A stretch of DNA of 64,000 nucleotides from Escherichia coli (GCF_024502345.1 NZ_JALDNN010000001.1), one strand, 5' to 3'. Shown: positions 10,340 through 33,709, numbered from the stretch's first letter. Notes: a model not told the origin generated them from the sequence alone. Made by a program: numbers and translations.

Positions 10340-10392
10340 TATTAACGGGGGCTTCTGGCTCCCAATTTATAAAAATTTCGAGGTTATTAATC

Positions 10393-12087: not shown

Positions 12088-12156
12088 ATACTGACATCGT
12101 CTCCTCTTGCCAACTCATTATGCGATGGTGAGGGGACCCTTATCGGAAATACTATT

Positions 12157-17300: not shown

Positions 17301-17849
17301 ATAGCGGGAAATCATACTGCTGGTAATGATGTTACTACCAATAAAGTAATCATTCTGTCCGGCTGAGACGGATGCTAATGCCTGATATAAATTTGTAAAA
17401 GAGATAATTGTTGCTTTTGGAAATGATTGATGAATTACCTCGTCAGGGGGATAATTTGCTACTCGAGCAATATTTACTGGTTTTGATGAGGTAAGCGGTC
17501 GCATTGAATCGTGAAGGGTGGTGACCAGCGCCGGAAAGGTAATTATCAGTGGTTTGGTTGCAGCAATGTCATCATTAAGAGGCGGCGAAGCAACTAAATG
17601 TGATAACACTATATCGACTTCACCTTCTTCCAGCGCGTCCATTGCTTTTTGATGATCGGCGTATTCCCGGAGTGTTAATTTGATATTTAACGCTCTTTTT
17701 AAAAGATTTAAATAGTCAGCATTAATACCACGAACCCGTTGCTGCGAATCGGTATGCAACAACGTAGCCGTTTGGGACTTATGTACTGCAATCACAAGAT
17801 TTTTTTTGCTCGCTAACCAACGTAATTCCTTGTTGCTCAGACGTAGTGG
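14376..17849 (-). pseudogene. evgS: evgS hybrid sensor kinase, 5'-truncated (about 40 N-terminal codons and promoter lost) at the IS903-like element
   Basis: Reading frame translates …PLRLSNKELRWLASKKNLVIAVHKSQ… right up to the IS inverted repeat at 17850; no start codon or native upstream sequence remains. Confidence 0.85.
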
Positions 17850-18906
17850 GGCTTTGTTGAATAAATCAGATTTCGGGTAAGTCTCCCCCGTAGCGGGTTG
17901 TGTTTTCAGGCAATACGCACGCTTTCAGGCATACCTGCTTTCGTCATTTTGTTCAGCGCTCGTACCAGGGCCATAGCCTCTGCAACCTGACCATCGTAGT
18001 CACGCAGTGTCAGTGAACCCCCGAACAGCTGTTTTACCCGGTACATCGCCGTTTCCGCTATCGAGCGACGGTTGTAATCTGTTGTCCATTTCCACCGCGC
18101 ATTACTCCCGGTCATTCGCTGATTAGCCACTGCACGGTTACGGTCTGCATATTCACCGGGCCAGTAACCCGCACCTTTTCGGGGAGGGATAAGCGCGCTG
18201 ATTTTCTTACGCCGCAGTTCATCGTGACATAGCCGGGTATCGTAAGCGCCATCGGCGGCGGCTGACCTGATTTTCCGGTGGGTTTGCCGGATTAACCCGG
18301 GGAAGGCCTCTGAGTCCGTAACGTTGTTCAGCGACAGGTCAGCGCAGATGATTTCATGTGTTTTACTGTCAACGGCGAGATGCAGCTTACGCCAGATACG
18401 GCGGCGTTCCTGGCCATGCTTTTTGACTTTCCACTCGCCTTCACCGAAGACCTTCAGCCCGGTGGAATCAATTACCAGGTGTGCGATTTCACCCCGGGTG
18501 GGCGTTTTGAAACTGACATTAACCGACTTTGCCCGCCTGCTGACACAGCTGTAATCCGGGCAGCGTAGCGGAACGTTCATCAGAGAAAAAATGGAATCAA
18601 TAAAGCCCTGCGCAGCGCGCAGGGTCAGCCTGAATACGCGTTTAATGACCAGCACAGTCGTGATGGCAAGGTCAGAATAGCGCTGAGGTCTGCCTCGTGA
18701 AGAAGGTGTTGCTGACTCATACCAGGCCTGAATAGCTTCATCATCCAGCCAGAAAGTTATGGAGCCACGGTTGATGAGGGCTTTATTGTAGGTGGGCCAG
18801 TTGGTGATTTTGAACTTTTGCTTTGCCACGGAACGGTCTGCGTTGTCGGGAAGATACGTGATCTGATCCTTCAACTCAGCAAAAGTTCGATTTATTCAAC
18901 AAAGCC
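17850..18906 (-). mobile_element. IS903-like insertion sequence (IS5 family), 1057 bp
   Basis: 18 bp terminal inverted repeats GGCTTTGTTGAATAAATC (17850-17867) and its reverse complement (18889-18906) flank a single transposase ORF; the 9 bp flanks differ (acgtagtgg vs cggtcaaaa). Confidence 0.8.
17906..18874 (-). CDS. IS903-group (IS5 family) DDE transposase
   Basis: 322 aa ORF, C-terminal two-thirds recalled as near-identical to IS903 transposase (…NRRSIAETAMYRVKQLFGG…); true start may be slightly internal. Confidence 0.85.
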   Translation of the reverse strand: MKDQITYLPDNADRSVAKQKFKITNWPTYNKALINRGSITFWLDDEAIQAWYESATPSSRGRPQRYSDLAITTVLVIKRVFRLTLRAAQGFIDSIFSLMNVPLRCPDYSCVSRRAKSVNVSFKTPTRGEIAHLVIDSTGLKVFGEGEWKVKKHGQERRRIWRKLHLAVDSKTHEIICADLSLNNVTDSEAFPGLIRQTHRKIRSAAADGAYDTRLCHDELRRKKISALIPPRKGAGYWPGEYADRNRAVANQRMTGSNARWKWTTDYNRRSIAETAMYRVKQLFGGSLTLRDYDGQVAEAMALVRALNKMTKAGMPESVRIA

Positions 18907-19841
18907 CGGTCAAAATGAATCTACCAGGACTGACCCTGTTAGTGCTCGGTGTTGGTGGCTTGCAAATTATGCTTGATAAAGGGCGCGATCTGGATTGGTT
19001 CAACTCGAATACAATAATAATATTAACAGTAGTATCAGTTATTTCTCTGATCTCTTTAGTCATTTGGGAGTCGACCTCAGAGAATCCGATTCTTGATCTC
19101 AGTTTGTTTAAGTCCCGTAATTTCACCATTGGTATTGTGAGTATCACCTGCGCGTATTTATTTTACTCTGGAGCGATCGTCCTTATGCCGCAGTTACTCC
19201 AGGAAACGATGGGGTATAATGCGATATGGGCCGGGCTTGCTTATGCGCCCATCGGCATCATGCCACTATTGATTTCACCTTTGATAGGACGTTATGGCAA
19301 TAAAATAGACATGCGGGTGTTAGTGACATTCAGTTTTTTGATGTATGCGGTTTGCTATTACTGGCGTTCTGTGACATTTATGCCAACGATTGATTTTACA
19401 GGCATCATTTTGCCACAGTTTTTCCAGGGATTCGCCGTTGCCTGTTTCTTTTTACCCTTAACAACGATTTCGTTTTCAGGCTTGCCAGATAATAAATTTG
19501 CCAATGCCTCGAGTATGAGTAATTTTTTTCGTACCTTGTCAGGATCAGTTGGTACGTCGTTGACAATGACGCTGTGGGGACGACGCGAATCGTTACACCA
19601 TAGTCAGTTGACAGCAACCATCGATCAATTTAACCCCGTGTTTAATTCATCGTCACAAATTATGGATAAATACTATGGTTCGCTTTCAGGAGTTCTTAAT
19701 GAAATTAATAATGAAATAACCCAGCAGTCACTTTCTATTTCTGCAAATGAGATTTTCCGTATGGCGGCTATTGCTTTTATCTTACTTACGGTTTTGGTTT
19801 GGTTTGCGAAACCGCCGTTTACAGCGAAAGGCGTTGGGTGA
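18907..19841 (+). pseudogene. emrY: emrY MFS multidrug efflux pump, 3' fragment (about 310 C-terminal codons) abutting the IS903-like element
   Basis: Translation matches the C-terminal transmembrane half of an EmrB/EmrY-type transporter; sequence begins directly at the IS inverted repeat. Confidence 0.8.
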
Positions 19842-19948
19842 TGATAAAAGGAGGGGGTTATAGCGGGTAAGACCGGGGATCTTAAGTCTGCGCCATCGGC
19901 AGCATCGCTCACCCAGGGAAAGGATTGCGATGCTGCGTTGAAACGTTA

Positions 19949-21277
19949 TTAACGGCCTTTTGCCAGATATTGATTCATCTCTTCTTCCGGCACCATTCCA
20001 CCTCCCGTCGCCCACACCAGATGAGTGGCATTACGCAATTGTTCTGCGCTGAAACCGTGCATCTGTTGGTAACTTACTGATGCACACACGCGCTGAGGTC
20101 CGGCCATACCCGCCAGTGCTGAAGGTTCAAGACGAATACCTTCTTCCTGCGCCAGCCAGCCAAGCATGTCATACATGGTTTGATCGCTAAGGGTATAGAA
20201 GCCATCCAGCAGACGCTCCATTGCCCGCCCGACAAAGCCTGATGCGCGACCAACTGCAAGGCCATCCGCTGCGGTAAGGTTGTCGATACCAATATCCTGA
20301 ACAGAAATCTGATCGTGTAATCCTGTATGGACGCCTAACAACATACAAGGGGAGTGCGTTGGTTCGGCAAAAAAGCAGTGAACATGATCGCCAAACGCCA
20401 GTTTAAGCCCGAATGCGACGCCACCAGGACCACCGCCAACACCACACGGCAGATAGACAAACAGAGGGTTATCAGCATCGACGATACGGCCTTGCTGGGC
20501 AAATTGCGCTTTAAGACGCTGGCCAGCGACGGAATACCCAAGGAACAACGTGCGGGAATTTTCGTCATCAATAAAGAAACAGTTCGGGTCAGACTGCGCT
20601 GCTTTACGTCCTTCCTCGACGGCAACACCATAATCTTGCTCATATTCCACGACCGTAACGCCATGGCTGCGCAGTTTCGCTTTTTTCCATGCCCGGGCAT
20701 CAGCAGACATATGAACTGTCACCTTAAAGCCAATGCGGGCGCTCATAATGCCGATTGATAACCCCAGATTTCCGGTTGAGCCCACAGCAATGCTGTATTG
20801 GCTAAAGAACTGTTTAAACTCCGGAGAAAGCAGTTTGCTGTAGTCATCATCAAGCGTCAGCAACCCCGCTTCCAGAGCCAGTTTTTCTGCGTGTGCCAGG
20901 ACTTCATAAATCCCGCCGCGTGCTTTTATGGAGCCGGAAATGGGCAAATGGCTATCTTTTTTCAGTAACAGTTGCCCGCTGATCGGTTGCTGATATTCTT
21001 TTTCCAGCCGTTTTTGCATAGCTGGAATGGCAACCAGTTCTGATTCAATAATCCCCCCAGTGGCAGCAGTTTCAGGAAATGCTTTTGCCAGATAGGGTGC
21101 AAAACGGGATAAGCGCGCATGGGCGTCCTGAACATCCTGTTCGGTCAGGCCAACATAAGGTAAACCTTCAGCCAATGAGGTCGTGCCAGGATTAAACCAG
21201 GTGGTTTCTTTAAGAGCAACCAGATCCTTTACCAACGGATACTGGGCGATGAGCGAGTTCATTTTAGCGTTTTCCAT
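19949..21277 (-). CDS. dsdA: D-serine dehydratase (PLP-dependent)
   Basis: 442 aa ORF recognised as DsdA; convergent with emrY as in K-12. Confidence 0.9.
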
Positions 21278-21294
21278 AGTACGTCTCTTTGCGC

Positions 21295-21525
21295 TTAGAT
21301 GATAAATGACAGCAGGAATGTGCCCGCCAGAGCGACGACTGAAGCGATAAATGTCGCTGTCGTATAGTATTTAAATGTTTCATTGAGCGTAGCGCCGCAA
21401 TATTGCTTCACTAGCCAGAAAAGCGAGTCCGTAACGATCGTGCAGCCAATTGCACCTGAACCGATAGCAATCGCAATAATTTCCGGGCTGATGTCGGGAT
21501 ACAGCGGCAGCACAATGATCCATAT
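21295..21525 (-). pseudogene. dsdX: dsdX D-serine permease, 3' remnant (about 72-76 codons)
   Basis: Translation is the hydrophobic C-terminus of a GntP-family permease; an in-frame stop lies 4 codons upstream of the first possible start, and csc sequence begins there. Confidence 0.75.
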
Positions 21526-21743
21526 TTATATTTTCTTCTCCAGGTTGGCGATGCCAGTTGGCATGTTTTACTTACTTGCCTATATGGTTACTCGTTGGCG
21601 AGAACAGAGGCGGAATTGGGGACAATTGTCCGGGAATTATTGTTATTTTTTATTGTATTGCTGTGTCAGGTGATAGGGCGTTGGATCTCGCCAGTGACGT
21701 CTGTTTCTGCTACAGTGCCCGTTTTACGGCAAACGGCTTGGGT

Positions 21744-22739
21744 ATGGCTTCATTAAAGGATGTCGCACGCCTGGCGGGAGTGTCGATGATGACAGTCTCC
21801 CGGGTGATGCATAATGCAGAATCTGTGCGTCCTGCAACGCGTGACCGCGTATTGCAGGCAATCCAGACCCTGAATTATGTTCCTGATCTTTCCGCCCGTA
21901 AGATGCGCGCTCAAGGACGTAAGCCGTCGACTCTCGCCGTGCTGGCGCAGGACACGGCTACCACTCCTTTCTCTGTTGATATTCTGCTTGCCATTGAGCA
22001 AACCGCCAGCGAGTTCGGCTGGAATAGTTTTTTAATCAATATTTTTTCTGAAGATGACGCTGCCCGCGCGGCACGTCAGCTGCTTGCCCACCGTCCGGAT
22101 GGCATTATCTATACTACAATGGGGCTGCGACATATCACGCTGCCTGAGTCCCTGTATGGTGAAAATATTGTATTGGCGAACTGTGTGGCGGATGACCCAG
22201 CGTTACCCAGTTATATCCCTGATGATTACACTGCACAATATGAATCAACACAGCATTTGCTCGCGGCGGGCTATCGTCAACCGTTATGCTTCTGGCTACC
22301 GGAAAGTGCGTTGGCAACAGGGTATCGTCGGCAGGGATTTGAGCAGGCCTGGCGTGATGCTGGACGAGATCTGGCTGAGGTGAAACAATTTCACATGGCA
22401 ACAGGTGATGATCACTACACCGATCTCGCAAGTTTACTCAATGCCCACTTCAAATCGGGCAAACCAGATTTTGATGTTCTGATATGTGGTAACGATCGCG
22501 CAGCCTTTGTCGCTTATCAGGTTCTCCTGGCGAAGGGGGTACGTATCCCGCAGGATGTCGCCGTAATGGGCTTTGATAATCTGGTTGGCGTCGGGCATCT
22601 GTTTTTACCGCCGCTGACCACAATTCAGCTTCCACATGACATTATCGGGCGGGAAGCTGCATTGCATATTATTGAAGGTCGTGAAGGGGGAAGAGTGACG
22701 CGGATCCCTTGCCCGCTGTTGATCCGTTGTTCCACCTGA
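21744..22739 (+). CDS. cscR: Sucrose operon repressor CscR (LacI family)
   Basis: LacI-type HTH (MASLKDVARLAGVSMMTVSRV) plus periplasmic-binding-like domain; start placed at the internal ATG at 21744 (331 aa) within the longer ORF. Confidence 0.85.
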   Translation: MASLKDVARLAGVSMMTVSRVMHNAESVRPATRDRVLQAIQTLNYVPDLSARKMRAQGRKPSTLAVLAQDTATTPFSVDILLAIEQTASEFGWNSFLINIFSEDDAARAARQLLAHRPDGIIYTTMGLRHITLPESLYGENIVLANCVADDPALPSYIPDDYTAQYESTQHLLAAGYRQPLCFWLPESALATGYRRQGFEQAWRDAGRDLAEVKQFHMATGDDHYTDLASLLNAHFKSGKPDFDVLICGNDRAAFVAYQVLLAKGVRIPQDVAVMGFDNLVGVGHLFLPPLTTIQLPHDIIGREAALHIIEGREGGRVTRIPCPLLIRCST

Positions 22740-22746
22740 TATTATG

Positions 22747-24180
22747 TTAACCCAGTAGCCAGAGTGCTCCATGTTGCAGCACAGCCACTCCGTGGGAGGC
22801 ATAAAGCGACAGTTCCCGTTCTTCTGGCTGCGGATAGATTCGACTACTCATCACCGCTTCCCCGTCGTTAATAAATACTTCCACGGATGATGTATCGATA
22901 AATATCCTTAGGGCGAGCGTGTCACGCTGCGGGAGGGGAATACTACGGTAGCCGTCTAAATTCTCGTGTGGGTAATACCGCCACAAAACAAGTCGCTCAG
23001 ATTGGTTATCAATATACAGCCGCATTCCAGTGCCGAGCTGTAATCCGTAATGTTCGGCATCACTGTTCTTCAGCGCCCACTGCAACTGAATCTCAACTGC
23101 TTGCGCGTTTTCCTGCAAAACATATTTATTGCTGATTGTGCGGGGAGAGACAGATTGATGCTGCTGGCGTAACGACTCAGCTTCGTGAACCGGGCGTTGT
23201 AGAAGTTTGCCATTGCTCTCTGATAGCTCGCGCGCCAGCGTCATGCAGCCTGCCCATCCTTCACGTTTTGAGGGCATTGGCGATTCCCACATATCCATCC
23301 AGCCGATAACAATACGCCGACCATCCTTCGCTAAAAAGCTTTGTGGTGCATAAAAGTCATGCCCGTTATCAAGTTCAGTAAAATGCCCGGATTGTGCAAA
23401 AAGTCGTCCTGGCGACCACATTCCGGGTATTACGCCACTTTGAAAGCGATTTCGGTAACTGTATCCCTCGGCATTCATTCCCTGCGGGGAAAACATCAGA
23501 TAATGCTGATCGCCAAGGCTGAAAAAGTCCGGACATTCCCACATATAGCTTTCACCCGCATCAGCGTGGGCCAGTACGCGATCGAAAGTCCATTCACGTA
23601 ATGAACTGCCGCGATAAAGCAGGATCTGCCCCGTGTTGTCTGGGTCTTTCGCCCCGACTACCATCCACCATGAGTCGGCTTCACGCCACACTTTAGGATC
23701 GCGGAAGTGCATGATTCCTTCTGGTGGAGTGAGGATCACACCCTGTTTCTCGAAATGAATACCATCCCGACTGGTAGCCAGACATTGTACTTCGCGAATT
23801 GCATCGTCATTACCTGCACCATCGAGCCAGACGTGTCCGGTGTAGATAAGTGAGAGGACACCATTGTCATCGACAGCACTACCTGAAAAACACCCGTCTT
23901 TGTCATTCTCGTCTCCTGGCGCTAGCGCAATAGGCTCATGCTGCCAGTGGATCATATCGTCGCTGGTGGCATGTCCCCAGTGCATTGGCCCCCAGTGTTC
24001 GCTCATCGGGTGATGTTGATAAAACGCGTGATAACGATCGTTAAACCAGATCAGGCCGTTTGGATCGTTCATCCACCCGGCAGGAGGCGCGAGGTGAAAA
24101 TGGGGATAGAAAGTGTTACCCCGGTGCTCATGAAGTTTTGCTAGTGCGTTTTGCGCCGCATGCAATCGAGATTGCGTCAT
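22747..24180 (-). CDS. cscA: Sucrose-6-phosphate hydrolase / invertase CscA (GH32)
   Basis: GH32 motifs (WMNDPNG, RDP, EC); start placed at MTQSRLH… (477 aa). Confidence 0.85.
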   Translation of the reverse strand: MTQSRLHAAQNALAKLHEHRGNTFYPHFHLAPPAGWMNDPNGLIWFNDRYHAFYQHHPMSEHWGPMHWGHATSDDMIHWQHEPIALAPGDENDKDGCFSGSAVDDNGVLSLIYTGHVWLDGAGNDDAIREVQCLATSRDGIHFEKQGVILTPPEGIMHFRDPKVWREADSWWMVVGAKDPDNTGQILLYRGSSLREWTFDRVLAHADAGESYMWECPDFFSLGDQHYLMFSPQGMNAEGYSYRNRFQSGVIPGMWSPGRLFAQSGHFTELDNGHDFYAPQSFLAKDGRRIVIGWMDMWESPMPSKREGWAGCMTLARELSESNGKLLQRPVHEAESLRQQHQSVSPRTISNKYVLQENAQAVEIQLQWALKNSDAEHYGLQLGTGMRLYIDNQSERLVLWRYYPHENLDGYRSIPLPQRDTLALRIFIDTSSVEVFINDGEAVMSSRIYPQPEERELSLYASHGVAVLQHGALWLLG

Positions 24181-24213
24181 TTTAATCATCCTGGTTAAGC
24201 AAATTTGGTGAAT

Positions 24214-24226
24214 TGTTAACGTTAAC
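24214..24226. promoter_or_regulatory. Putative CscR operator 1 (TGTTAACGTTAAC) in the cscA-cscK divergent region
   Basis: 13 bp palindromic motif, identical copy 64 bp away; resembles LacI-family operator cores. Confidence 0.45.
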
Positions 24227-24277
24227 TTTTATAAAAATATAGTCCCTTACTTTCATAAATGCGATGAATATCACAAA

Positions 24278-24290
24278 TGTTAACGTTAAC
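24278..24290. promoter_or_regulatory. Putative CscR operator 2 (TGTTAACGTTAAC)
   Basis: Second identical copy of the 13 bp motif in the same intergenic region. Confidence 0.45.
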
Positions 24291-24395
24291 TATGCCGTTT
24301 TGTGATCGAATATGCATGTTTTAGTAAATCCATGACGATTTTGCGAGAAAGAGGTTTATCACTATGCGTAACTCAGATGAATTTAAGGGAAAAAA

Positions 24396-25310
24396 ATGTC
24401 AGCCAAAGTATGGGTTTTAGGGGATGCGGTCGTAGATCTCTTGCCAGAATCAGACGGGCGCCTACTGCCTTGTCCTGGCGGCGCGCCAGCTAACGTTGCG
24501 GTGGGAATCGCCAGATTAGGCGGAATAAGTGGATTTATAGGTCGGGTCGGTGATGATCCTTTTGGGGCGTTAATGCAAAGAACGCTGCTAACTGAGGGAG
24601 TCGATATCACGTATCTGAAGCAAGATGAATGGCACCGGACATCCACGGTGCTTGTCGATCTGAACGATCAAGGGGAACGTTCATTTACGTTTATGGTCCG
24701 CCCCAGTGCCGATCTTTTTTTAGAGACGACAGACTTGCCCTGCTGGCGACATGGCGAATGGTTACATCTCTGTTCAATTGCGTTGTCTGCCGAGCCTTCG
24801 CGTACCAGCGCATTTACTGCGATGACGGCGATCCGGCATGCCGGAGGTTTTGTCAGCTTCGATCCTAATATTCGTGAAGATCTATGGCAAGACGAGCATT
24901 TGCTCCGCTTGTGTTTGCGGCAGGCGCTACAACTGGCGGATGTCGTCAAGCTCTCGGAAGAAGAATGGCGACTTATCAGTGGAAAAACACAGAACGATCG
25001 GGATATATGCGCCCTGGCAAAAGAGTATGAGATCGCCATGCTGTTGGTGACTAAAGGTGCAGAAGGTGTGGTGGTCTGTTATCGAGGACAAGTTCACCAT
25101 TTTGCTGGAATGTCTGTGAATTGTGTCGATAGCACGGGGGCGGGAGATGCGTTCGTTGCCGGGTTACTCACAGGTCTGTCCTCTACGGGATTATCTACAG
25201 ATGAGAGAGAAATGCGACGAATTATCGATCTCGCTCAACGTTGCGGAGCGCTTGCAGTAACGGCGAAAGGGGCAATGACAGCGCTGCCATGTCGACAAGA
25301 ACTGGAATAG
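24396..25310 (+). CDS. cscK: Fructokinase CscK (PfkB family)
   Basis: 304 aa ORF; ribokinase/PfkB motifs (GGAPANVA…, DSTGAGDAFVAG). Confidence 0.85.
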   Translation: MSAKVWVLGDAVVDLLPESDGRLLPCPGGAPANVAVGIARLGGISGFIGRVGDDPFGALMQRTLLTEGVDITYLKQDEWHRTSTVLVDLNDQGERSFTFMVRPSADLFLETTDLPCWRHGEWLHLCSIALSAEPSRTSAFTAMTAIRHAGGFVSFDPNIREDLWQDEHLLRLCLRQALQLADVVKLSEEEWRLISGKTQNDRDICALAKEYEIAMLLVTKGAEGVVVCYRGQVHHFAGMSVNCVDSTGAGDAFVAGLLTGLSSTGLSTDEREMRRIIDLAQRCGALAVTAKGAMTALPCRQELE

Positions 25311-25381
25311 TGAGAAGTAAACGGCGAAGTCGCTCTTATCTCTAAATAGGACGTGAATTTTTTAACGACAGGCAGGTAATT

Positions 25382-26629
25382 ATGGCACTGAATATTCCAT
25401 TCAGAAATGCGTACTATCGTTTTGCATCCAGTTACTCATTTCTCTTTTTTATTTCCTGGTCGCTGTGGTGGTCGTTATACGCTATTTGGCTGAAAGGACA
25501 TCTAGGGTTGACAGGGACGGAATTAGGTACACTTTATTCGGTCAACCAGTTTACCAGCATTCTATTTATGATGTTCTACGGCATCGTTCAGGATAAACTC
25601 GGTCTGAAGAAACCGCTCATCTGGTGTATGAGTTTCATCCTGGTCTTGACCGGACCGTTTATGATTTACGTTTATGAACCGTTACTGCAAAGCAATTTTT
25701 CTGTAGGTCTAATTCTGGGGGCGCTCTTTTTTGGCCTGGGGTATCTGGCGGGATGCGGTTTGCTTGACAGCTTCACCGAAAAAATGGCGCGAAATTTTCA
25801 TTTCGAATATGGAACAGCGCGCGCCTGGGGATCTTTTGGCTATGCTATTGGCGCGTTCTTTGCCGGCATATTTTTTAGTATCAGTCCCCATATCAACTTC
25901 TGGTTGGTCTCGCTATTTGGCGCTGTATTTATGATGATCAACATGTGTTTTAAAGATAAGGATCACCAGTGCGTAGCGGCGGATGCGGGAGGGGTAAAAA
26001 AAGAGGATTTTATCGCAGTTTTCAAGGATCGAAACTTCTGGGTTTTCGTCATATTTATTGTGGGGACGTGGTCTTTCTATAACATTTTTGATCAACAACT
26101 TTTTCCTGTCTTTTATGCAGGTTTATTCGAATCACACGATGTAGGAACGCGCCTGTATGGTTATCTCAACTCATTCCAGGTGGTACTCGAAGCGCTGTGC
26201 ATGGCGATTATTCCTTTCTTTGTGAATCGGGTAGGGCCAAAAAATGCATTACTTATCGGTGTTGTGATTATGGCGTTGCGTATCCTTTCCTGCGCGCTGT
26301 TCGTTAACCCCTGGATTATTTCATTAGTGAAGCTGTTACATGCCATTGAGGTTCCACTTTGTGTCATATCCGTCTTCAAATACAGCGTGGCAAACTTTGA
26401 TAAGCGCCTGTCGTCGACGATCTTTCTGATTGGTTTTCAAATTGCCAGTTCGCTTGGGATTGTGCTGCTTTCAACGCCGACTGGGATACTCTTTGACCAC
26501 GCAGGCTACCAGACAGTTTTCTTCGCAATTTCGGGTATTGTCTGCCTGATGTTGCTATTTGGCATTTTCTTCCTGAGTAAAAAACGCGAGCAAATAGTTA
26601 TGGAAACGCCTGTACCTTCAGCAATATAG
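25382..26629 (+). CDS. cscB: Sucrose:H+ symporter CscB (MFS, oligosaccharide:H+ symporter family)
   Basis: 415 aa 12-TM ORF recognised as CscB. Confidence 0.9.
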   Translation: MALNIPFRNAYYRFASSYSFLFFISWSLWWSLYAIWLKGHLGLTGTELGTLYSVNQFTSILFMMFYGIVQDKLGLKKPLIWCMSFILVLTGPFMIYVYEPLLQSNFSVGLILGALFFGLGYLAGCGLLDSFTEKMARNFHFEYGTARAWGSFGYAIGAFFAGIFFSISPHINFWLVSLFGAVFMMINMCFKDKDHQCVAADAGGVKKEDFIAVFKDRNFWVFVIFIVGTWSFYNIFDQQLFPVFYAGLFESHDVGTRLYGYLNSFQVVLEALCMAIIPFFVNRVGPKNALLIGVVIMALRILSCALFVNPWIISLVKLLHAIEVPLCVISVFKYSVANFDKRLSSTIFLIGFQIASSLGIVLLSTPTGILFDHAGYQTVFFAISGIVCLMLLFGIFFLSKKREQIVMETPVPSAI

Positions 26630-27069
26630 ACGTAAACTTTTCCGGTTGTTGTCGATATCTCCCTATCCCTCAACCGGAAAATAATAATACTAAAGTGCTT
26701 AGCCCTGCTAATAATCACCTAATCCAAACGCCTCATTCATGTTCTGGTACAGTCGCTCAAATGTACTTCAGATGCGCGGTTCGCTGATTTCCAGGACATT
26801 GTCGTCATTCAGCGACCTGTCCCGTGTATCACGGTCCTGCGAATTCATCAAGGAATGCATTGCGGAGTGAAGTATCGAGTCACGCCATATTTCGCTATCA
26901 GGATTCTGTGTGATGGTTACATCGCCCGGCCCAGGGCTGTTTAGTCATCAGCGCTTTCTGACAGTGCTGAGATTTCAACCTGTTGCAGTAAAAATGAGTA
27001 GATATAAGGCAAGTGTGCTGCCAAACCCATCTTTTACGGGGTGAAGGTAGATTTCGTATGAAGGGTATC

Positions 27070-27084
27070 TGGTGTCCCCTGCAG
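27070..27084. repeat. 15 nt direct repeat of the argW 3' end (TGGTGTCCCCTGCAG); candidate prophage attR core
   Basis: Exact match to the first 15 nt of the reverse-complemented argW 3' end at 38480-38494. Confidence 0.5.
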
Positions 27085-27157
27085 ACATCTACTTGAAGCG
27101 GCAGGGGATTGATTGGAATGGTATTTTTTAGATGTGAGAAATATTTTACCCGCTATT

Positions 27158-27358
27158 TTACCCATTGGCGCGGCTTAAGAGCTTATTTTTGAATTCACAA
27201 TGGTCACGATATAACCATCTTGCTCGCCCGTGGATAACTTTGGCTTTTGGAAGGTCTCCGGACTTAATCCGATCATAGATGAAGGTTTTACCGAAGCCAG
27301 TATCGGCCATGATGAATTTCAAATCAACCAGTGAATCAGGCTGTAGTTCGTGTTGCAT
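27158..27358 (-). CDS. torI: TorI-like excisionase / recombination directionality factor (AlpA family)
   Basis: 66 aa ORF (MQHELQPDSLVDLKFIMADTGFGKTF…), recalled as matching K-12 KplE1 TorI; sits at the prophage edge opposite intS. Confidence 0.8.
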   Translation of the reverse strand: MQHELQPDSLVDLKFIMADTGFGKTFIYDRIKSGDLPKAKVIHGRARWLYRDHCEFKNKLLSRANG

Positions 27359-27377
27359 GAGTGCTATCTCCGAATAG

Positions 27378-27393
27378 GGAATCGAACCTGCAA
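27378..27393. repeat. 16 nt fragment identical to the argW T-arm (GGAATCGAACCTGCAA); not a tRNA gene
   Basis: Matches argW positions 38494-38509 (reverse-complemented strand) but flanking sequence cannot form an acceptor or T stem. Confidence 0.4.
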
Positions 27394-27493
27394 ATCAGGC
27401 AATAAAAAACCGCATTGATGCGGCGATGGTAGGTCTGGATATCATTGAGCAATGAACAGGCATCATCGAGTGTGAGGCGGTGTTATTTTATGG

Positions 27494-27838
27494 TTAGTCC
27501 TTGCGTAGCTCTCTGATTCTTCTGTAAGTCTCTGGTGCTTTGTTTCCGTGTATCTTCATTTCCGACTTCAACAGAGCAACTAGGGAATCCCATTCGTTGA
27601 GGATTCCTTTGAATGCCGGAACGCGCTTTGCAACCTTGTCGAATGAATCTCTGATTTCTGGAATCTGCTCAACAAGCGCAACGCATCGTTGGAAATCGTC
27701 TGCGTCATGGGGAGCGCCGAAGTGATGACCATAGATATTCTTTTTCAGGCCACATGCGATTGAGGCAAGAGTTGCGCTACTGATGCCGACATCGCCAGTT
27801 GATTGCCATTTCAAAACCTTCATAGCCAAATCTGACAT
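27494..27838 (-). CDS. Hypothetical prophage protein
   Basis: 114 aa ORF in the pL-driven leftward gene string; no family recognised. Confidence 0.45.
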   Translation of the reverse strand: MSDLAMKVLKWQSTGDVGISSATLASIACGLKKNIYGHHFGAPHDADDFQRCVALVEQIPEIRDSFDKVAKRVPAFKGILNEWDSLVALLKSEMKIHGNKAPETYRRIRELRKD

Positions 27839-27938
27839 TTCTTGTCTCCATAAAACAAAACTCGCCGTAGCGAGTTCAGATAAAAGAAATCCCCGCGAGT
27901 GCGAGGATTGTTATTCACCTTTTACGGCAAGTTGCAGG

Positions 27939-28232
27939 TTAGCCACGGTTAACCTCCTGAGGCGGTTCTGGTAGCGGCATCCAGTGGGTTACTTTCGATG
28001 CCGGTTCTTCCCCATCGTCAGTAACTGCCCACCATTTGTTTCTCGACCAATCGTAATACCCTTCGAAGGTATCGCACTCAGTCCAGCCGTAAGACTTACC
28101 CCAACACCAAACATACTGTTTATCGTTCGGCATTCGCTCACTACAGCTTATCCAACCAGCGTTTGTTTCGTTAGCGTCCTTAGTGTGTTCATCTGGTTTA
28201 TATGAGCGAAGCATTTCGCTTAGCGTAATCAT
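27939..28232 (-). CDS. DUF551-domain phage protein
   Basis: 97 aa ORF ending …THWMPLPEPP, typical of DUF551; first ORF downstream of pL/nutL. Confidence 0.6.
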   Translation of the reverse strand: MITLSEMLRSYKPDEHTKDANETNAGWISCSERMPNDKQYVWCWGKSYGWTECDTFEGYYDWSRNKWWAVTDDGEEPASKVTHWMPLPEPPQEVNRG

Positions 28233-28295
28233 TGCAAAGCGCCTCCGCCGAGAAGGTTAGCTTCTGCATTCACCCCAAAGTTCACTTTGGTTATT

Positions 28296-28310
28296 GCGCT
28301 TTGTCAGCGC
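28296..28310 (-). promoter_or_regulatory. Putative nutL boxB hairpin (GCGCUGACAAAGCGC on the leftward transcript)
   Basis: Perfect 5 bp stem with GACAA loop about 75 nt downstream of the pL start; resembles P22-type boxB, not lambda boxB. Confidence 0.4.
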
Positions 28311-28378
28311 CGTAGATTCATATTTGAATCGTTGTATATTCACCGCCCTGGTGAGTAGTGCGTCCTGCTGATGTGTTT

Positions 28379-28441
28379 AGTATCACCGCCAGTGGTATTT
28401 ATGTCAACACCGCTAGAGATAATTCATCACCGCAGATGGTT
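28379..28441 (-). promoter_or_regulatory. Lambda-type pL promoter with OL1, OL2, OL3 operators
   Basis: OL1 TATCACCGCCAGTGGTA (28381-28397) identical to lambda; OL2 (28405-28421) and OL3 (28425-28441) each differ from lambda at one position; -35 TTGACA and -10 GATACT on the minus strand. Confidence 0.8.
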
Positions 28442-28627
28442 ATCTGTATGTTTTTTATATGAATTTATTTTTTGCAGTGGTGCATTGTTTGGTAGGTGAG
28501 AGATCTGAACTGCTATGTTTAGTGAGTTGTATCTATTTATTTTCAAATAGATACAATTGGTTATGTGTTCTTGGGTGAGGGGGATCGTGAGGCAAAGAAA
28601 ACCCGGCTCTGTGGCCGGGAATAACAT

Positions 28628-29006
28628 TTAGGAATCAAGGTCAGGTAGCATGATTTTCTCAATCAACGTCAATGCCCTTTGGTCTCGTTCAGCAAAATAT
28701 TTAGGAGCGTACTGAGGCAGCCACACTTCGTTGAAGTATTGTTTGAAATCTGCAATATTCGTTTGGGTATAGACGTACCGGGAATGTCCGGCCATCTGGG
28801 TACTCATGGTTATATGTTGGGAATGTCTTCGGCTCAACCCCCCGGTTGTCACGGAGCCATTGCGAGAAAACCCTACCCTCTGAAATATCAGGGACCATTT
28901 TTTCTGGCAGCGTATATCCGGCCTGTTCAAGTGGCGCAACCAAGTTAAACGTCAGTTCATTAAGCATAGAAAAGTGCGTATGAGGAACTCTGCCTCGGTT
29001 TGTCAT
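28628..29006 (-). pseudogene. Two overlapping ORFs in different frames downstream of the KilA-N ORF; possible frameshifted C-terminal part of an antirepressor-like gene
   Basis: ORFs 28701-29006 and 28628-28939 overlap out of frame and directly follow the KilA-N ORF. Confidence 0.3.
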
Positions 29007-29045
29007 ATACCGCTTAAGGTGGATAGGGAGTTCGGCAGGCGCTCT

Positions 29046-29387
29046 TTAACCTGACATCCACTCACGCACCCATCTCGATACTTGCACTGCAAATTTTGGA
29101 GATAGCCACTGAGCTAAATTAATTGCGATGTCTGGATGAACCCAAGTCCCTTGATTCTCTGCTCTTCCGCCTTTAAATGATTGAATTAACTCCGATATGG
29201 GAATCCCCATATCGCGTGATAATTCATCAAAAAAATCTTGTGTTGTTTTTAGTCGTGTATAGTCAGCAAGTAGCTTCCCCGCAGACTTGCACATCGCGGT
29301 GGCATTGATGTATCCGTCTTTGGTGCGAAGATGGATGACTTCTCCATCAACTTCTCTAGCGATTAATGCAAGTTGAAATTGTGTCAT
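29046..29387 (-). CDS. KilA-N domain protein
   Basis: 113 aa ORF with KilA-N-like N-terminal domain; immediately downstream of cI. Confidence 0.55.
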   Translation of the reverse strand: MTQFQLALIAREVDGEVIHLRTKDGYINATAMCKSAGKLLADYTRLKTTQDFFDELSRDMGIPISELIQSFKGGRAENQGTWVHPDIAINLAQWLSPKFAVQVSRWVREWMSG

Positions 29388-29418
29388 AAATCATCCTATT
29401 ACGTGAAAAATAAAACAA

Positions 29419-30135
<717 letters not shown>

Positions 30136-30142
30136 TTAAATC

Positions 30143-30207
30143 TATCACCGCAAGGGATAAACTTCTAACACCGTGCGTGTTGACTATTTTACCTCTAGCG
30201 GTGATAA
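30143..30207. promoter_or_regulatory. Lambda-type OR3-OR2-OR1 operators with PR and PRM
   Basis: OR3 (30143-30159) and OR2 (30165-30181) identical to lambda; OR1 TACCTCTAGCGGTGATA (30189-30205) has one G-to-A change; PR -35 TTGACT and -10 GATAAT. Confidence 0.85.
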
Positions 30208-30232
30208 TGGTTGCCTGTACTAAGGAGGTTGT

Positions 30233-30433
30233 ATGGAACAACGCATAACCCTGAAAGATTATGCAATACGCTTTGGGCAAACCAAGACGGCTAAAGATCT
30301 CGGCGTATATCAAAGCGCGATTAACAAGGCCATTCATGCAGGCCGAAAGATTTTTTTAACTATAAACGCTGATGGAAGCGTTTATGCGGAAGAAATAAAG
30401 CCCTTCCCAAGTAACAAAAAAACAACTGCATAA
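30233..30433 (+). CDS. cro: Lambda-type Cro repressor
   Basis: 66 aa [69 protein letters not shown], near-identical to lambda Cro. Confidence 0.9.
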
Positions 30434-30440
30434 GTAACAC

Positions 30441-30486
30441 CGCTCTTTTCACAATGGACATTCGTCCTACGTCGCTGACAAAGCGA
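30441..30486 (+). promoter_or_regulatory. Putative nutR (boxA-like CGCTCTTTT and boxB-like hairpin TCGCTGACAAAGCGA)
   Basis: Position immediately downstream of cro; boxB-like stem-loop with GACAA loop at 30472-30486; spacer longer than in lambda. Confidence 0.4.
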
Positions 30487-30570
30487 GCCCCAAGATATCT
30501 GACCAACTAAGGCCATATGCGTTTCCACGCATACCTTTCAACTAACTATTCACTATTGGAAAATTAACAA

Positions 30571-30867
30571 ATGACACAAGCAAGTTATAGCAAGCCAACA
30601 CAGCGAGAAATTGATCGCGCTGAAACTGATTTACTCATCAACCTGTCAACGCTTACCCAGCGCGGTCTGGCAAAGATGATTGGCTGTCATGAATCGAAGA
30701 TAAGCAGAACGGACTGGAGATTTATTGCTTCGGTCTTGTGTGCTTTCGGAATGGCATCAGACATCAGTCCGATTAGCAGGGCTTTTAAGTATGCATTGGA
30801 TGGAATCACAAAGAAAAAATCCCCGGCTGCCACCGAGGATTCTGAGCAAATTGATATGCAATTCTGA
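30571..30867 (+). CDS. CII-like transcriptional activator
   Basis: 98 aa ORF; C-terminus KKSPAATEDSEQIDMQF parallels lambda CII KKRPAATERSEQIQMEF; conserved position after cro/nutR. Confidence 0.6.
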   Translation: MTQASYSKPTQREIDRAETDLLINLSTLTQRGLAKMIGCHESKISRTDWRFIASVLCAFGMASDISPISRAFKYALDGITKKKSPAATEDSEQIDMQF

Positions 30868-31047
30868 GGGAATTACTGGATCAATCCACAGGAGTAATTA
30901 TGACAAAACGTCGTAAGAAATACCAGGAAAAAGAAGAGATTCGACACCCTGATTCACCTGAGGGATTAGTGGTAGCCGCAGCAAATAACAGGGCGTTCGC
31001 AGAGCGCCTTGTTGGTGTTTACAGACTAGCCAAAGCAGGAGTGAAAC

Positions 31048-32193
31048 ATGGGCGTCGTTAAGTTAGCTGATTACAGGCCTCAACTGGAGGTCGTGGAGCA
31101 TCGCGTGGCAGATACCGAAGATGGTTTCATGCGCGTTGCTAACGAGATTACTCAATATCCAGACCAGATTGAATCCGTTCGTAAAGGCATGGGATTCATT
31201 GATGAAGACCAGCGTAATTCTATCGGCACCTTAGCGGCTGGCGCACGCCTTGCGTCATCGTCTCCAGAAGCAATGCAATCATGGCTGCAAAACAACGCCG
31301 GTGAGTTAGCTCGTGTTGGCGTTAATCCTCATGACGTCGCTCAGATGTACCAACAGAACCCGCGGCAGTTCGTCGAATTTGTCGATCACCTGGGGATGAA
31401 CAGTCTCGGGCCCGAAAAATACTTTGACCTACAGGATAAAATGCAGGGTCGCCAGGTTACCATGCGCGGTCAGGATCTGGATTCGCAAACCGCCGCTCGG
31501 AATCAGGCAATCACAATGCGCGGACAAGATATCCAGGCGAATTTAGGTCAGCAGCGCATTAATCTGGACGCAGAAACAAACCGCATTAACAACGAAAATA
31601 AGCGCCTTGACCGGATGCTATCAGCAGAAACTAACGACCTGAAGCGCCAGGAAATACAGAGCCGCATAGCAGCCAACAACCAGCAGTTGCAGCAGAAGCA
31701 GCAAGCGCTAAATGATGGCTACAAAGACGGCATCAACACCCTCACAACCAGCATGTTCACTCTGAACGATATCGTTAGTTCTCCTTCACTTAAGAGCATT
31801 ACAGGCTTACGTGGAGTAATCCCCAACGTTCCAGGCTCACAGGCTGCAGACACTCAGGCACGACTTGATACCTTTAAATCACAAGCATACCTGACAGCGG
31901 TTCAGGCCATGCGAGGCATGGGCGCACTTTCTGATGCCGAGGGCAAAAAGCTCGACCAGGCTGTTGGTTCGCTGCAGAACTCGCAGAGCGAGGAGTCCTT
32001 TCGTCGCAACGCTGGCGTCATCCTGAACACGCTCAACCAGAAGCGTAATGAGGCGGTTGGTAAGTACGTTCAGCAAAACGGTATCAAGCGAGTGGAAGCG
32101 CCTCAGGCTTCTATAGATTACCTGAAGCAGCACCCCGAGCTGTCAATCGACTTCATTAATCGCTACGGATATCTTCCATCTTTGGGGCAGTAA
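31048..32193 (+). CDS. Hypothetical phage protein, Gln-rich with predicted coiled coil
   Basis: 381 aa ORF immediately upstream of, and abutting, the transglycosylase gene; no family recognised. Confidence 0.5.
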   Translation: MGVVKLADYRPQLEVVEHRVADTEDGFMRVANEITQYPDQIESVRKGMGFIDEDQRNSIGTLAAGARLASSSPEAMQSWLQNNAGELARVGVNPHDVAQMYQQNPRQFVEFVDHLGMNSLGPEKYFDLQDKMQGRQVTMRGQDLDSQTAARNQAITMRGQDIQANLGQQRINLDAETNRINNENKRLDRMLSAETNDLKRQEIQSRIAANNQQLQQKQQALNDGYKDGINTLTTSMFTLNDIVSSPSLKSITGLRGVIPNVPGSQAADTQARLDTFKSQAYLTAVQAMRGMGALSDAEGKKLDQAVGSLQNSQSEESFRRNAGVILNTLNQKRNEAVGKYVQQNGIKRVEAPQASIDYLKQHPELSIDFINRYGYLPSLGQ

Positions 32194-32649
32194 ATGGCTA
32201 ATTACCGTGATTTGTTAGAGCAGGCTGGCGCACGTTACGGTGTGCCAGAAGGGTTGATGACTGCACTGGGTGCCAAGGAGTCTTCTTACAACCCTGCCGC
32301 AGTAAGCTCCGCCGGGGCTGTAGGATTGACTCAGGTCATGCCTGGGACATGGCGTGATATGGGTTATACCGATGAGCAAATGCAAAACCCCGAATATCAA
32401 GCTGACGCTGGCGCGCGCTATCTGGCAAAGATGTACCAGCAGTTTGGTAACTGGCGTGACGCTCTTCAGGCTTATCACGACGGTCCCGGCAACGTTATGA
32501 AGGCAAAGCGTGGTGAATATACGCCAGGACCTGAAGGCCGCGGTTACGTTGATGATCGCTTTGCTCAATGGGCGGGTGACCCGGTGACAGACTCAACAGT
32601 CGAACAGCGCGCCACCTCTGCAAAGGTACCTTTGCTGATTGTTATCTGA
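32194..32649 (+). CDS. Phage lytic transglycosylase (SLT domain)
   Basis: 151 aa ORF with an SLT-domain-like catalytic region (…GAKESSYNPAAVSSAGAVGLTQVMPGTW…). Confidence 0.65.
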   Translation: MANYRDLLEQAGARYGVPEGLMTALGAKESSYNPAAVSSAGAVGLTQVMPGTWRDMGYTDEQMQNPEYQADAGARYLAKMYQQFGNWRDALQAYHDGPGNVMKAKRGEYTPGPEGRGYVDDRFAQWAGDPVTDSTVEQRATSAKVPLLIVI

Positions 32650-33127
32650 TGTTACTGCTACTGTTGCATGTTACCGTGTTTCCAAATCCTGAATTGCAGT
32701 TTGTATATGTGTCAACGCGTGTTGGGTAAGGTTGAGTTATAACAGGCTGGCGCGCTTTTTGCTCGATCGCTTGCATTGTGTTTACAGCCTGATAATTCAA
32801 TAAAGCCTGCTGGAATGCTTGGCTTTGTGCTATTTGTTGGGCTTGTTCTTGGCTTTGTAATTGAACATAAAGATTCTGAAGCTCAAGTCTTGCCTGTGCG
32901 TCACTTATCTTGCCTTCATCGACACCTTGCCCGAGCATCTTTGCAGCAAGGACATACAGCTTAGGTGTTGGTGCTGATGCCATGCGTGAGTCGTTCTTCA
33001 CACTGGCATCAAGGCAATTAGCCATATCGCTAAGCTTTTGATAGCGTTGTTCGCAACTTGCTTGATAGTCACTTACTTTTGCGCATCCAACCAGCAGAAG
33101 CGGGATAATTAACAGTGATTTTTTCAT
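32642..33127 (-). CDS. Phage-encoded lipoprotein (candidate lysogenic-conversion or exclusion moron)
   Basis: Lipobox LLVGC after the signal peptide MKKSLLIIPLLLVGC; start placed at the internal Met of ORF 32642-33163. Confidence 0.5.
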   Translation of the reverse strand: MKKSLLIIPLLLVGCAKVSDYQASCEQRYQKLSDMANCLDASVKNDSRMASAPTPKLYVLAAKMLGQGVDEGKISDAQARLELQNLYVQLQSQEQAQQIAQSQAFQQALLNYQAVNTMQAIEQKARQPVITQPYPTRVDTYTNCNSGFGNTVTCNSSSNIR

Positions 33128-33197
33128 ATGGTTAACTCTCCTTAGTTTTTCACAGGATATCATGAAGGCTATGCCATTTTAGCCGGAAACTAGATTT

Positions 33198-33464
33198 CTA
33201 TGTTTCCTTTTTATTATTGCTATACATGGTCTTAAGCGTTTCAAATACCATTTTCTTAACCATATCAGATTGTTGTTCTGCCATACGCTCTGCATCATCA
33301 ATGTAAACGGATGCAGAGCTTTGTTTAGCCAACGATTCTTCAATCGCTGCAATTATCTCTGAGTTCAGAGATCTGTTATTCATCTTCGCACGCTGCTTAA
33401 TTTTCGCGTGGAGTTCATGCGGAAGTCTCAAGTGAAACTGCGCCTCATCGTATTTGCTGTACAT
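33198..33464 (-). CDS. mnt: Mnt-like ribbon-helix-helix repressor
   Basis: C-terminal …DDAERMAEQQSDMVKKMVFETLK… parallels P22 Mnt …NDAERLADEQSELVKKMVFDTLK…; start placed at the internal Met (about 88 aa). Confidence 0.6.
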   Translation of the reverse strand: MYSKYDEAQFHLRLPHELHAKIKQRAKMNNRSLNSEIIAAIEESLAKQSSASVYIDDAERMAEQQSDMVKKMVFETLKTMYSNNKKET

Positions 33465-33709
33465 CCTTGATGCCTCACCAGTTGGGTGGAATGGCATCGT
33501 AACCTACTGGATAAATACTCAATAGTACCATTTCGGTATGCAATCACATCATGGTTGCATCATATCATCGTCTGGAGCAATGAAATGTCAGATATCACCG
33601 CAAATGTTGTGGTAAGCATGCCTTCGCAACTCTTCACTATGGCGCGTTCTTTTAAAGCGGTTGCCAATGGTAAAATTTATATCGGTAAAATTGACACTGA
33701 CCCGGTAAA

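Follow-up and report, generated by a model that had tools for sequence, protein, structure and literature searches.

A csc sucrose gene block in place of dsdC and most of dsdX between argW and dsdA of Escherichia coli

The argW-dsdA region of an E. coli sequence of 64,000 nucleotides (the window, by which we mean the whole stretch of DNA analysed) almost certainly represents the common csc allele, in which a csc block has replaced dsdC and the 5' part of dsdX. Comparison with MG1655 revealed that 5,557 bp (21513-27069) stand where K-12 has 2,368 bp and that the K-12 stretch lost begins one base past the argW attachment core and ends at dsdX nucleotide 1120. Besides cscR, cscA, cscK and cscB, the block contains one decayed island gene, and the csc genes (21744-26629) lie between argW (38480-38554) and dsdA (19949-21277; Table 1). 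An earlier reading of the window, made from the sequence only, had proposed that csc replaced dsdC and most of dsdX at 21295-26700. The replacement was confirmed by the comparison with K-12 and by the literature, but the extent had to be corrected, as the block reaches 27069, about 370 bp to the right of 26700. The sequence-only reading had also taken the event to be of a known type at the variable argW-dsdCXA island, in agreement with published work (PMC7486766, PMC4366372, PMC3032704). Exactly the same substitution was described in O157:H7 EDL933 (PMC7486766, PMC4366372) and the same substitution in E. coli W (PMC3032704).

The csc substitution at argW is real but ordinary and is present in about half of the complete genomes. 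The csc form, counted as genomes that matched the 6.2-kb arrangement at a coverage of at least 80%, was detected in 2,645 of the 5,426 complete E. coli genomes, and the dsdC-dsdX form was detected in 2,698 of the 5,426. With so many occurrences, the arrangement is no product of chance.

Table 1. Features of the argW-dsdA region, in coordinates of the 64,000-nucleotide window
Feature	Position	Strand	Basis
dsdA, D-serine ammonia-lyase, intact, 442 aa	19949..21277	-	TIGR02035, K-12 DsdA
dsdX remnant, last 72 codons (DsdX 374-445) and stop	21295..21513	-	NF007395, tblastn
Left junction	21512..21513		blastn and base-by-base comparison with MG1655
cscR, LacI-family repressor of csc genes, 331 aa	21744..22739	+	PF00356 LacI HTH, PF00532 sugar-binding domain
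cscA, GH32 sucrose hydrolase (invertase), 477 aa	22747..24180	-	TIGR01322, GH32 N-/C-terminal domains
Divergent cscA / cscKB control region	24181..24395		sequence and repeat search
cscK, fructokinase, 304 aa	24396..25310	+	NF006957, PfkB domain
cscB, sucrose:H+ symporter, LacY family, 415 aa	25382..26629	+	TIGR00882, PF01306
Decayed DUF4942 pseudogene, about codons 38-151 of roughly 281	26717..27003	-	tblastn
att core TGGTGTCCCCTGCAG, repeating the final 15 bases of argW	27070..27084	-	identical sequence at 38480-38494, within argW
Degraded P22/KplE1-like prophage in argW (torI ... intS)	27085..38479		Pfam
argW, tRNA-Arg(CCU), integration hot spot bounding the island	38480..38554	-	ARAGORN; Rfam tRNA, 63.4 bits

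All four csc genes are open and have the lengths of the RefSeq genes. CscR exceeded the cut-offs of both PF00356 and PF00532, reached the curated cut-off of none of the NCBIfam models, and is identical to WP_001344440.1, annotated as 'sucrose operon repressor CscR'. CscA scored 481.4 bits against TIGR01322 (cut-off 356.4) and differs from RefSeq CscA proteins by 1-4 amino acids. CscK scored 505.7 bits against NF006957 (cut-off 450), contains a PfkB-family domain (PF00294) and is identical to a protein found in two RefSeq genomes. CscB scored 593.6 bits against TIGR00882 (cut-off 220) and 642.9 bits against the LacY_symp model PF01306, of which it covered positions 2-412 of 413; it is identical to WP_001197016.1 (L004:5753-7000), and O157:H7 86-24 has the same protein. 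The starts of the longest open reading frames (21558, a TTG, for cscR and 24189 for cscA) were rejected as mechanical artefacts in favour of those in RefSeq, 21744 and 24180.

The four genes have the layout of the csc regulon, as do RefSeq genomes with annotated cscR, cscA, cscK and cscB, with cscKB divergent from cscA and cscR located beyond cscA. cscA is convergent with cscR and co-directional with dsdX'-dsdA. A repeat search of the cscA/cscKB region detected the 12-bp palindrome GTTAACGTTAAC twice (24215-24226 and 24279-24290), and a CRP-like site, TGCGATGAATATCACA, is present at 24260-24275. On sequence grounds, both copies of the palindrome are putative CscR operators. The pair of palindromes and the CRP-like site match the two 12-bp inverted repeats and the Crp site described between cscA and cscK (PMC11251922, citing Jahreis 2002).

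At the left junction, the last K-12-homologous base is 21512 (dsdX nucleotide 1121) and csc-type DNA begins at 21513. Alignment with csc-positive genomes, which had been suggested as the way to fix the junctions, gave a shared left join and a right edge at the argW att core. The 40 bases on each side of the left join are identical in four csc-positive genomes, including O157:H7 86-24, which has the same dsdX remnant and junction and is identical across all 80 bases, and a fifth csc-positive genome differs at four csc-side bases only, well beyond the join. The left junction is common to distant lineages, which points to a single origin followed by spread as the most likely history.

The remnant of dsdX matched positions 374-445 of 445 of the DsdX model NF007395 and was 98.6% identical to residues 374-445 of K-12 DsdX (tblastn of K-12 DsdX). 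A TAA is located four codons upstream of its first codon in the same frame, with two more stops beyond, which bears out the description of about 72 dsdX codons left with an in-frame stop just upstream. RefSeq genomes annotate the remnant as a pseudogene that lacks its N-terminus; it is non-functional and preserves the DNA upstream of dsdA. Full-length DsdX is missing from the window, as 72 of its 445 residues remain and DsdX 1-373 was not found in the 64 kb (tblastn), and tblastn of K-12 DsdC gave no match at E ≤ 1e-3 anywhere in the 64 kb. DsdA was described as intact, rightly so: the 442-residue product scored 814.7 bits against the D-serine ammonia-lyase model TIGR02035 (cut-off 368), covered it end to end (positions 1-431 of 431), was 99.8% identical to K-12 DsdA over residues 1-442 (tblastn) and contained no stops. 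Of a functional dsdCXA system, the window has an intact DsdA and neither DsdC nor a full-length DsdX. K1 strains reportedly have a second dsdCXA copy, to go by the title of Moritz and Welch (2006), which counts against a loss of D-serine use, as such a copy could lie outside these 64 kb.

At the right edge, csc-type DNA stops at 27069 and K-12 homology resumes exactly at 27070, where the att core TGGTGTCCCCTGCAG (27070-27084) forms the outer end of the prophage and is the equivalent of K-12 pawZ. Only 440 bp separate the cscB stop (26629) from the att core (27070); they hold only the decayed DUF4942 fragment, consistent with the earlier statement that no dsdC is present between cscB and the prophage. 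The right edge abuts the argW 3' end or an att copy in every genome compared, whatever element follows. Different elements or att variants occupy the att position in other csc-positive genomes, and the csc flank is fused directly to an intact, empty argW in 1,471 genomes. The argW of the window is identical to K-12 argW and was the sole match in an Rfam scan of 19000-39000. Pfam matches in the prophage include an integrase, a CI-like repressor, KilA-N, an injection protein, SLT, an IS3-type transposase and a shortened tailspike, and no genome covered at least 80% of 27085-38479. Because csc abuts an empty argW in 1,471 genomes, the degraded 11.4-kb prophage is a separate insertion; it is context and lies outside the replacement.

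The csc regulon at argW-dsdA was reportedly described by Bockmann in 1992 and Jahreis in 2002. The window has the same four genes, in the same order and orientation and with the same operator/CRP region, as the regulons of EC3132, W and O157:H7 EDL933 (PMC11251922, PMC3032704, PMC7486766), and its proteins are identical to RefSeq proteins or differ at a few residues, with no substantive difference; its argW prophage, however, is different and degraded. K-12 MG1655 (argW-CPS-53-dsdCXA) has the att core and the flanks of the window, namely argW, both prophage ends (intS and torI), the last 218 nt of dsdX, dsdA and the 3' portion of emrY, whereas the 5,557-bp csc block is replaced in K-12 by 2,368 bp with dsdC and a complete dsdX. 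D-serine is a substrate for K-12 and sucrose is not (PMC3032704). The csc genes of Cf_csc, the Citrobacter freundii locus, are by its published description homologous, and its CscR operators and Crp site are conserved, but each of cscA and cscR is inverted and the divergence of the DNA is beyond what blastn detects (PMC11251922). The sole unusual feature near the locus is a deletion, associated with IS903B, that covers evgA, emrK and the beginnings of evgS and emrY, and the evgS'-IS903B-'emrY join was in no complete genome searched.

Other explanations of the arrangement were weighed against replacement. Published wording that the csc regulon was 'inserted between the argW region and dsdX', or is an 'insertion in dsdX' (PMC3032704), would suit a plain insertion of csc into dsdX without loss of DNA, with dsdC and the 5' part of dsdX surviving beyond the insert. 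However, the DNA past cscB reaches the argW att core after 440 bp, DsdC and DsdX residues 1-373 are nowhere in the 64 kb, and in 1,471 genomes nothing separates the csc flank from argW. The DsdC and DsdX search and the att-core junction refute a plain insertion for this window, and we regard it as exceedingly improbable. The chance that the dsdX'/cscR join is a chimeric mis-join of the assembly is practically nil: the join recurs in four independently finished genomes and, with differences on the csc side only, in a fifth, and 2,645 complete genomes have the arrangement as a whole, a recurrence that refutes an artefact for which only the abruptness of the junction speaks. It is also very unlikely that the csc form is ancestral and that K-12-type strains acquired dsdC-dsdX afterwards. 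The nearly equal frequency of the two forms speaks for such a history, but the 72-codon 3' fragment of dsdX in the csc form has no start and has stops upstream and is therefore the leftover of a once complete gene, and the csc block also contains an island pseudogene. Replacement of dsdC and the 5' part of dsdX by csc is thus the reading that we retain.

The decayed DUF4942 pseudogene bears on how csc may have arrived. The relic (287 bp) has stops and a frameshift, is 50-51% identical to full-length DUF4942 proteins (E ~1e-15, tblastn), and its DNA is 72-76% identical to DUF4942 genes next to tRNA-Ile and tRNA-Ser islands. It was detected in about 2,636 genomes, always next to csc only. It is a vestige of the gene type found at the tRNA-adjacent end of two cbtA/cbeA islands. 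These islands, which we take to be of the CP4-44 / CP4-57 / CP4-6 type, have a terminal DUF4942 gene homologous to the relic, and the csc block likewise starts at a tRNA 3' end. Jahreis is said to have proposed in 2002 that csc was delivered by an element integrating at argW, and the position of the relic between cscB and att fits such a delivery. We infer that a mobile element integrating at argW may have carried csc in, that a later deletion would have taken the other end of the element together with dsdC and most of dsdX, and that the present prophage would have inserted into argW afterwards and independently. The orientation of the relic relative to the tRNA, opposite to that of the two full-length copies inspected, counts against this route. 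In contrast to the cbtA/cbeA islands, the csc block retains no integrase, toxin-antitoxin or other island genes: no second att copy was found near either junction, dsdX side included, no surviving integrase was found at the dsdX side, and no relics of other island genes (DUF957, DUF5983) were found near either junction.

The expected functions were drawn from published work on identical arrangements; phenotype is not readable from sequence. By analogy, CscB would bring in sucrose with a proton, CscA would split sucrose and CscK would phosphorylate fructose, while CscR would repress both promoters until sucrose is present and expression would need cAMP-CRP. Isolates with csc and without scr were never fast on sucrose; growth was slow or very slow in most and absent in some, and among five csc-positive, scr-less isolates that failed to grow on sucrose, four had no visible defect in the locus (PMC11251922). 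The csc genes of the window would thus be expected to support usually slow growth on sucrose only, making the strain at best a slow user. The sequence-only reading that D-serine catabolism had probably been traded for sucrose use is correct in the loss of dsdC and dsdX and overstated in the gain (PMC11251922). It had further stressed that dsdA is left with neither activator nor permease; both are lost in the window, but the decisive loss is that of DsdC, and CycA and SstT have been implicated in D-serine uptake (PMC7486766). Because dsdA would be essentially silent without DsdC, the strain is expected to be D-serine-negative and D-serine-sensitive, neither growing on D-serine nor tolerating it. 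E. coli W is unable to use D-serine (PMC3032704), and inability to use and intolerance of D-serine were reported for EDL933; the silent dsdA can be switched on again by small deletions, with reactivation from cscAp (PMC7486766). Deletions that place dsdA under the cscA promoter can thus restore its expression.

A silent dsdA is the reading that we prefer, and it is unlikely that the gene is still expressed at times and protects against D-serine, either from a weak promoter of its own or by read-through from the sucrose-induced cscA promoter. D-serine inhibits wild-type EHEC with the same arrangement, and the reporter signal from the wild-type cscAp-to-dsdA fragment was low, although in EHEC deletion of cscR alone led to D-serine tolerance and the dsdA read density tracked that of cscA (PMC7486766). 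Read-through would be helped by the common direction of cscA and dsdA and by the finding of no terminator-like site on the minus strand from 22747 to 21513, but the untranslated antisense cscR RNA of about 1.2 kb would probably be prone to Rho termination. All six csc-positive sequences in the comparison have a full-length dsdA, and its dN/dS is 0.03-0.16, a ratio that is confounded: the dsdA of the window is 3 nt from K-12 and 18-47 nt from the other csc-positive genomes, so dsdA alleles clearly move between dsd-positive and csc-positive backgrounds, and the non-functional dsdX remnant likewise has almost only synonymous changes. Low dN/dS was rejected as a sign of selection on dsdA on account of this allele recombination and of the same pattern in the dead remnant. 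That dsdA has been kept intact in about half of all E. coli since it is still useful, through sucrose-coupled read-through from the cscA promoter or as a reserve gene switchable by single deletions, is quite doubtful. If true, the csc allele would rewire the D-serine pathway instead of causing its plain loss, and read-through would couple D-serine detoxification to the availability of sucrose.

The csc event, the loss of D-serine use, a silent but reactivatable dsdA and slow csc-only growth on sucrose have all been published previously; the break points and population counts given here are confirmations and not discoveries, and contain no new biology. Among niche-linked gene exchanges in E. 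coli, the csc/dsd polymorphism is a textbook example: csc tends to be found in intestinal and attaching-effacing strains, which D-serine inhibits, and urinary and meningitis strains retain dsdCXA (PMC4366372, PMC7486766). For the window, the locus only classifies the strain as csc-type E. coli, and the published distribution makes phylogroup B1, D or E more likely than A or F.

Alignment of the window to MG1655 defined the break points of the replacement. Homology with the K-12 layout on the dsdA side ends at base 21512, which corresponds to dsdX nucleotide 1121, and restarts at base 27070. The 15 bases from there onward form the att core TGGTGTCCCCTGCAG (pawZ in the K-12 annotation), which is the reverse complement of the 3'-terminal 15 bases of argW; an exact second copy of it lies inside argW at 38480-38494. 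Given these break points, 5,557 bp (21513-27069) occupy the site of 2,368 bp in K-12, which comprise dsdC, the first 1,120 nucleotides of dsdX, the intergenic region between these two genes and the spacer that follows att. A simple insertion of csc was rejected because the 2,368 bp of the K-12 layout are gone. The csc block takes the place of dsdC and most of dsdX, as the sequence-only reading had proposed, and the window shows all those hallmarks of a csc-type argW-dsdCXA island that are open to sequence testing.

The individual genes also agreed with that reading (see the table). The cscR-cscA-cscKB cluster is present and dsdA is intact; no internal stops were found in these five complete genes, and each of their proteins is identical to, or a few residues different from, proteins of finished RefSeq genomes. 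The claim that only about the last 72 codons of dsdX remain behind an in-frame stop held, with a TAA located 4 codons upstream of the first codon of the remnant and further stops beyond it when the dsdX frame is read. The reported lack of dsdC between cscB and the prophage extends to the whole 64-kb window, where tblastn with K-12 DsdC as the query gave no match.

Features of the csc/dsd region and its surroundings
Feature	Position	Strand	Description
IS903B	17850-18906		1,057 bp, inverted repeats GGCTTTGTTGAATAAATC; flanks 14376-17849 and 18906-19841
dsdA	19949-21277	-	442 aa, D-serine ammonia-lyase model matched end to end, 99.8% identity with K-12 DsdA
dsdX remnant	21295-21513	-	72-codon ORF, matches DsdX residues 374-445 only
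cscR	21744-22739	+	331 aa, LacI HTH and sugar-binding domain
cscA	22747-24180	-	477 aa, GH32
cscK	24396-25310	+	304 aa, fructokinase
cscB	25382-26629	+	415 aa, LacY-type symporter
DUF4942 pseudogene	26717-27003	-	decayed, ~codons 38-151 of roughly 281; stops and frameshift
argW prophage	27085-38479		degraded P22/KplE1-like remnant, 11.4 kb

The csc/dsd replacement is already known, and its description as a known type of event was borne out. Among 5,426 complete E. coli genomes, the 6.2-kb csc arrangement was found in 2,645, about half, and the K-12 dsdC-dsdX segment in 2,698 (at least 80% coverage for both). Descriptions of the csc arrangement go back to Alaeddinoglu and Charles in 1979 and Jahreis in 2002. 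Four csc-positive genomes, one of them O157:H7 86-24, agree at all 80 bases spanning the left junction, and in a fifth, more divergent genome only 4 csc-side bases differ, at least 20 bases past the join.

In every genome compared, the right flank ends in the same csc-type sequence, ...GAAGGGTATC, followed by an argW-derived att core. The elements behind the core vary (P22/KplE1-like prophages, a P4-like satellite, and the O157 element), and a synthetic joined query showed the csc flank fused directly to intact argW and contiguous in 1,471 genomes. Since the flank is constant despite the differing elements and is joined to bare argW in these genomes, csc-type DNA starts at the base after argW, and the window's prophage is a separate insertion, probably a later one. 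The genes of this prophage are torI and intS, together with those for a KilA-N protein, a CI-like repressor, an SLT lysozyme, an IS3-family transposase, an injection protein and a tailspike; the injection protein is truncated, and the tailspike lacks the beginning of its head-binding domain. Coverage of the prophage reaches 80% in no genome of the collection, so it is a lineage-specific mosaic.

The spacer between the cscB stop and the att core is 440 bp long and was detected in about 2,636 genomes, adjoining csc only. Its DUF4942 relic shares 50-51% amino-acid identity with full-length copies; full-length relatives, with a DNA identity of 72-76%, occupy the outermost position in two cbtA/cbeA islands, which adjoin tRNA-Ile and tRNA-Ser genes. 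Jahreis et al. in 2002 reportedly proposed that csc was delivered by a mobile element with site-specific integration at argW, and argW has been described as a recombination hot spot that facilitated csc insertion (PMC4366372). The relic and a boundary exactly at the tRNA 3' end fit such delivery, in which an element integrating at argW would have brought csc. Because no integrase remains within the csc block, no second att copy was found at its dsdX side, and the relic lies in the opposite orientation relative to the tRNA compared with the two full-length examples, we infer this route rather than observe it.

In the cscA-cscK intergenic region the 12-bp palindrome GTTAACGTTAAC occurs twice (24215-24226 and 24279-24290), as putative CscR operators, with a CRP-like site, TGCGATGAATATCACA, between them (24260-24275). 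This agrees exactly with the csc regulon as outlined in PMC11251922 (citing Jahreis 2002), where two 12-bp inverted-repeat CscR operators lie on either side of the cscA promoter and a Crp site is also present; all defining features of the regulon that sequence can address are present. In strain C 236-04A, the window's closest relative across the csc region (99.9% identity), an IS5-like element, ISKpn26, interrupts cscB (10383-12830 of locus L002), whereas the gene is intact in the window, which shows that the csc locus is undergoing independent inactivation in close relatives.

Beyond dsdA, IS903B stands where K-12 has 2,920 bp (evgS codons 1-40, evgL, evgA, emrK, and emrY codons 1-193), and it has no 9-bp target duplication. 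Loss of these segments is expected to inactivate both EvgAS, a two-component system for acid resistance, and the efflux pump EmrKY. The exact join was absent from all complete E. coli genomes in the collection.

Acquisition of cscBKAR in EDL933 removed dsdC and truncated dsdX; dsdA is silent there but can be activated by small deletions that bring it under control of the cscA or z3622 promoter (PMC7486766), and D-serine use was lost in E. coli W (PMC3032704). Pairwise dN/dS of dsdA was 0.03-0.16 among six csc-positive sequences. Between the dsdA genes of the window and K-12 there are only 3 nt differences, against 18-47 nt between the window and other csc-positive genomes (loci L003, L004, L007 and L008), which indicates that dsdA alleles move by homologous recombination between csc and dsd backgrounds, with a break point near the csc/dsdX junction. 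Low dN/dS was rejected as a sign of function because alleles recombine and the dsdX remnant, which is certainly dead, likewise shows nearly all synonymous differences. Conditional dsdA expression driven by the cscA promoter, which is co-directional with it, is a minority possibility: no terminator-like sites were found on the minus strand from 22747 to 21513, but the wild-type EHEC data (PMC7486766) oppose it.

Of the proposed trade of D-serine catabolism for sucrose use, the loss is a published one and the gain was overstated. From the literature, CscR would keep cscA and cscKB repressed in the absence of sucrose, and expression would require cAMP-CRP; CscB would import sucrose with a proton, CscA would hydrolyse it and CscK would phosphorylate the fructose. 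Among csc-positive, scr-negative isolates, growth on sucrose was slow or very slow in 23 of 29, absent in 5 and fast in none (PMC11251922), so the gain of sucrose use is to be read as modest.
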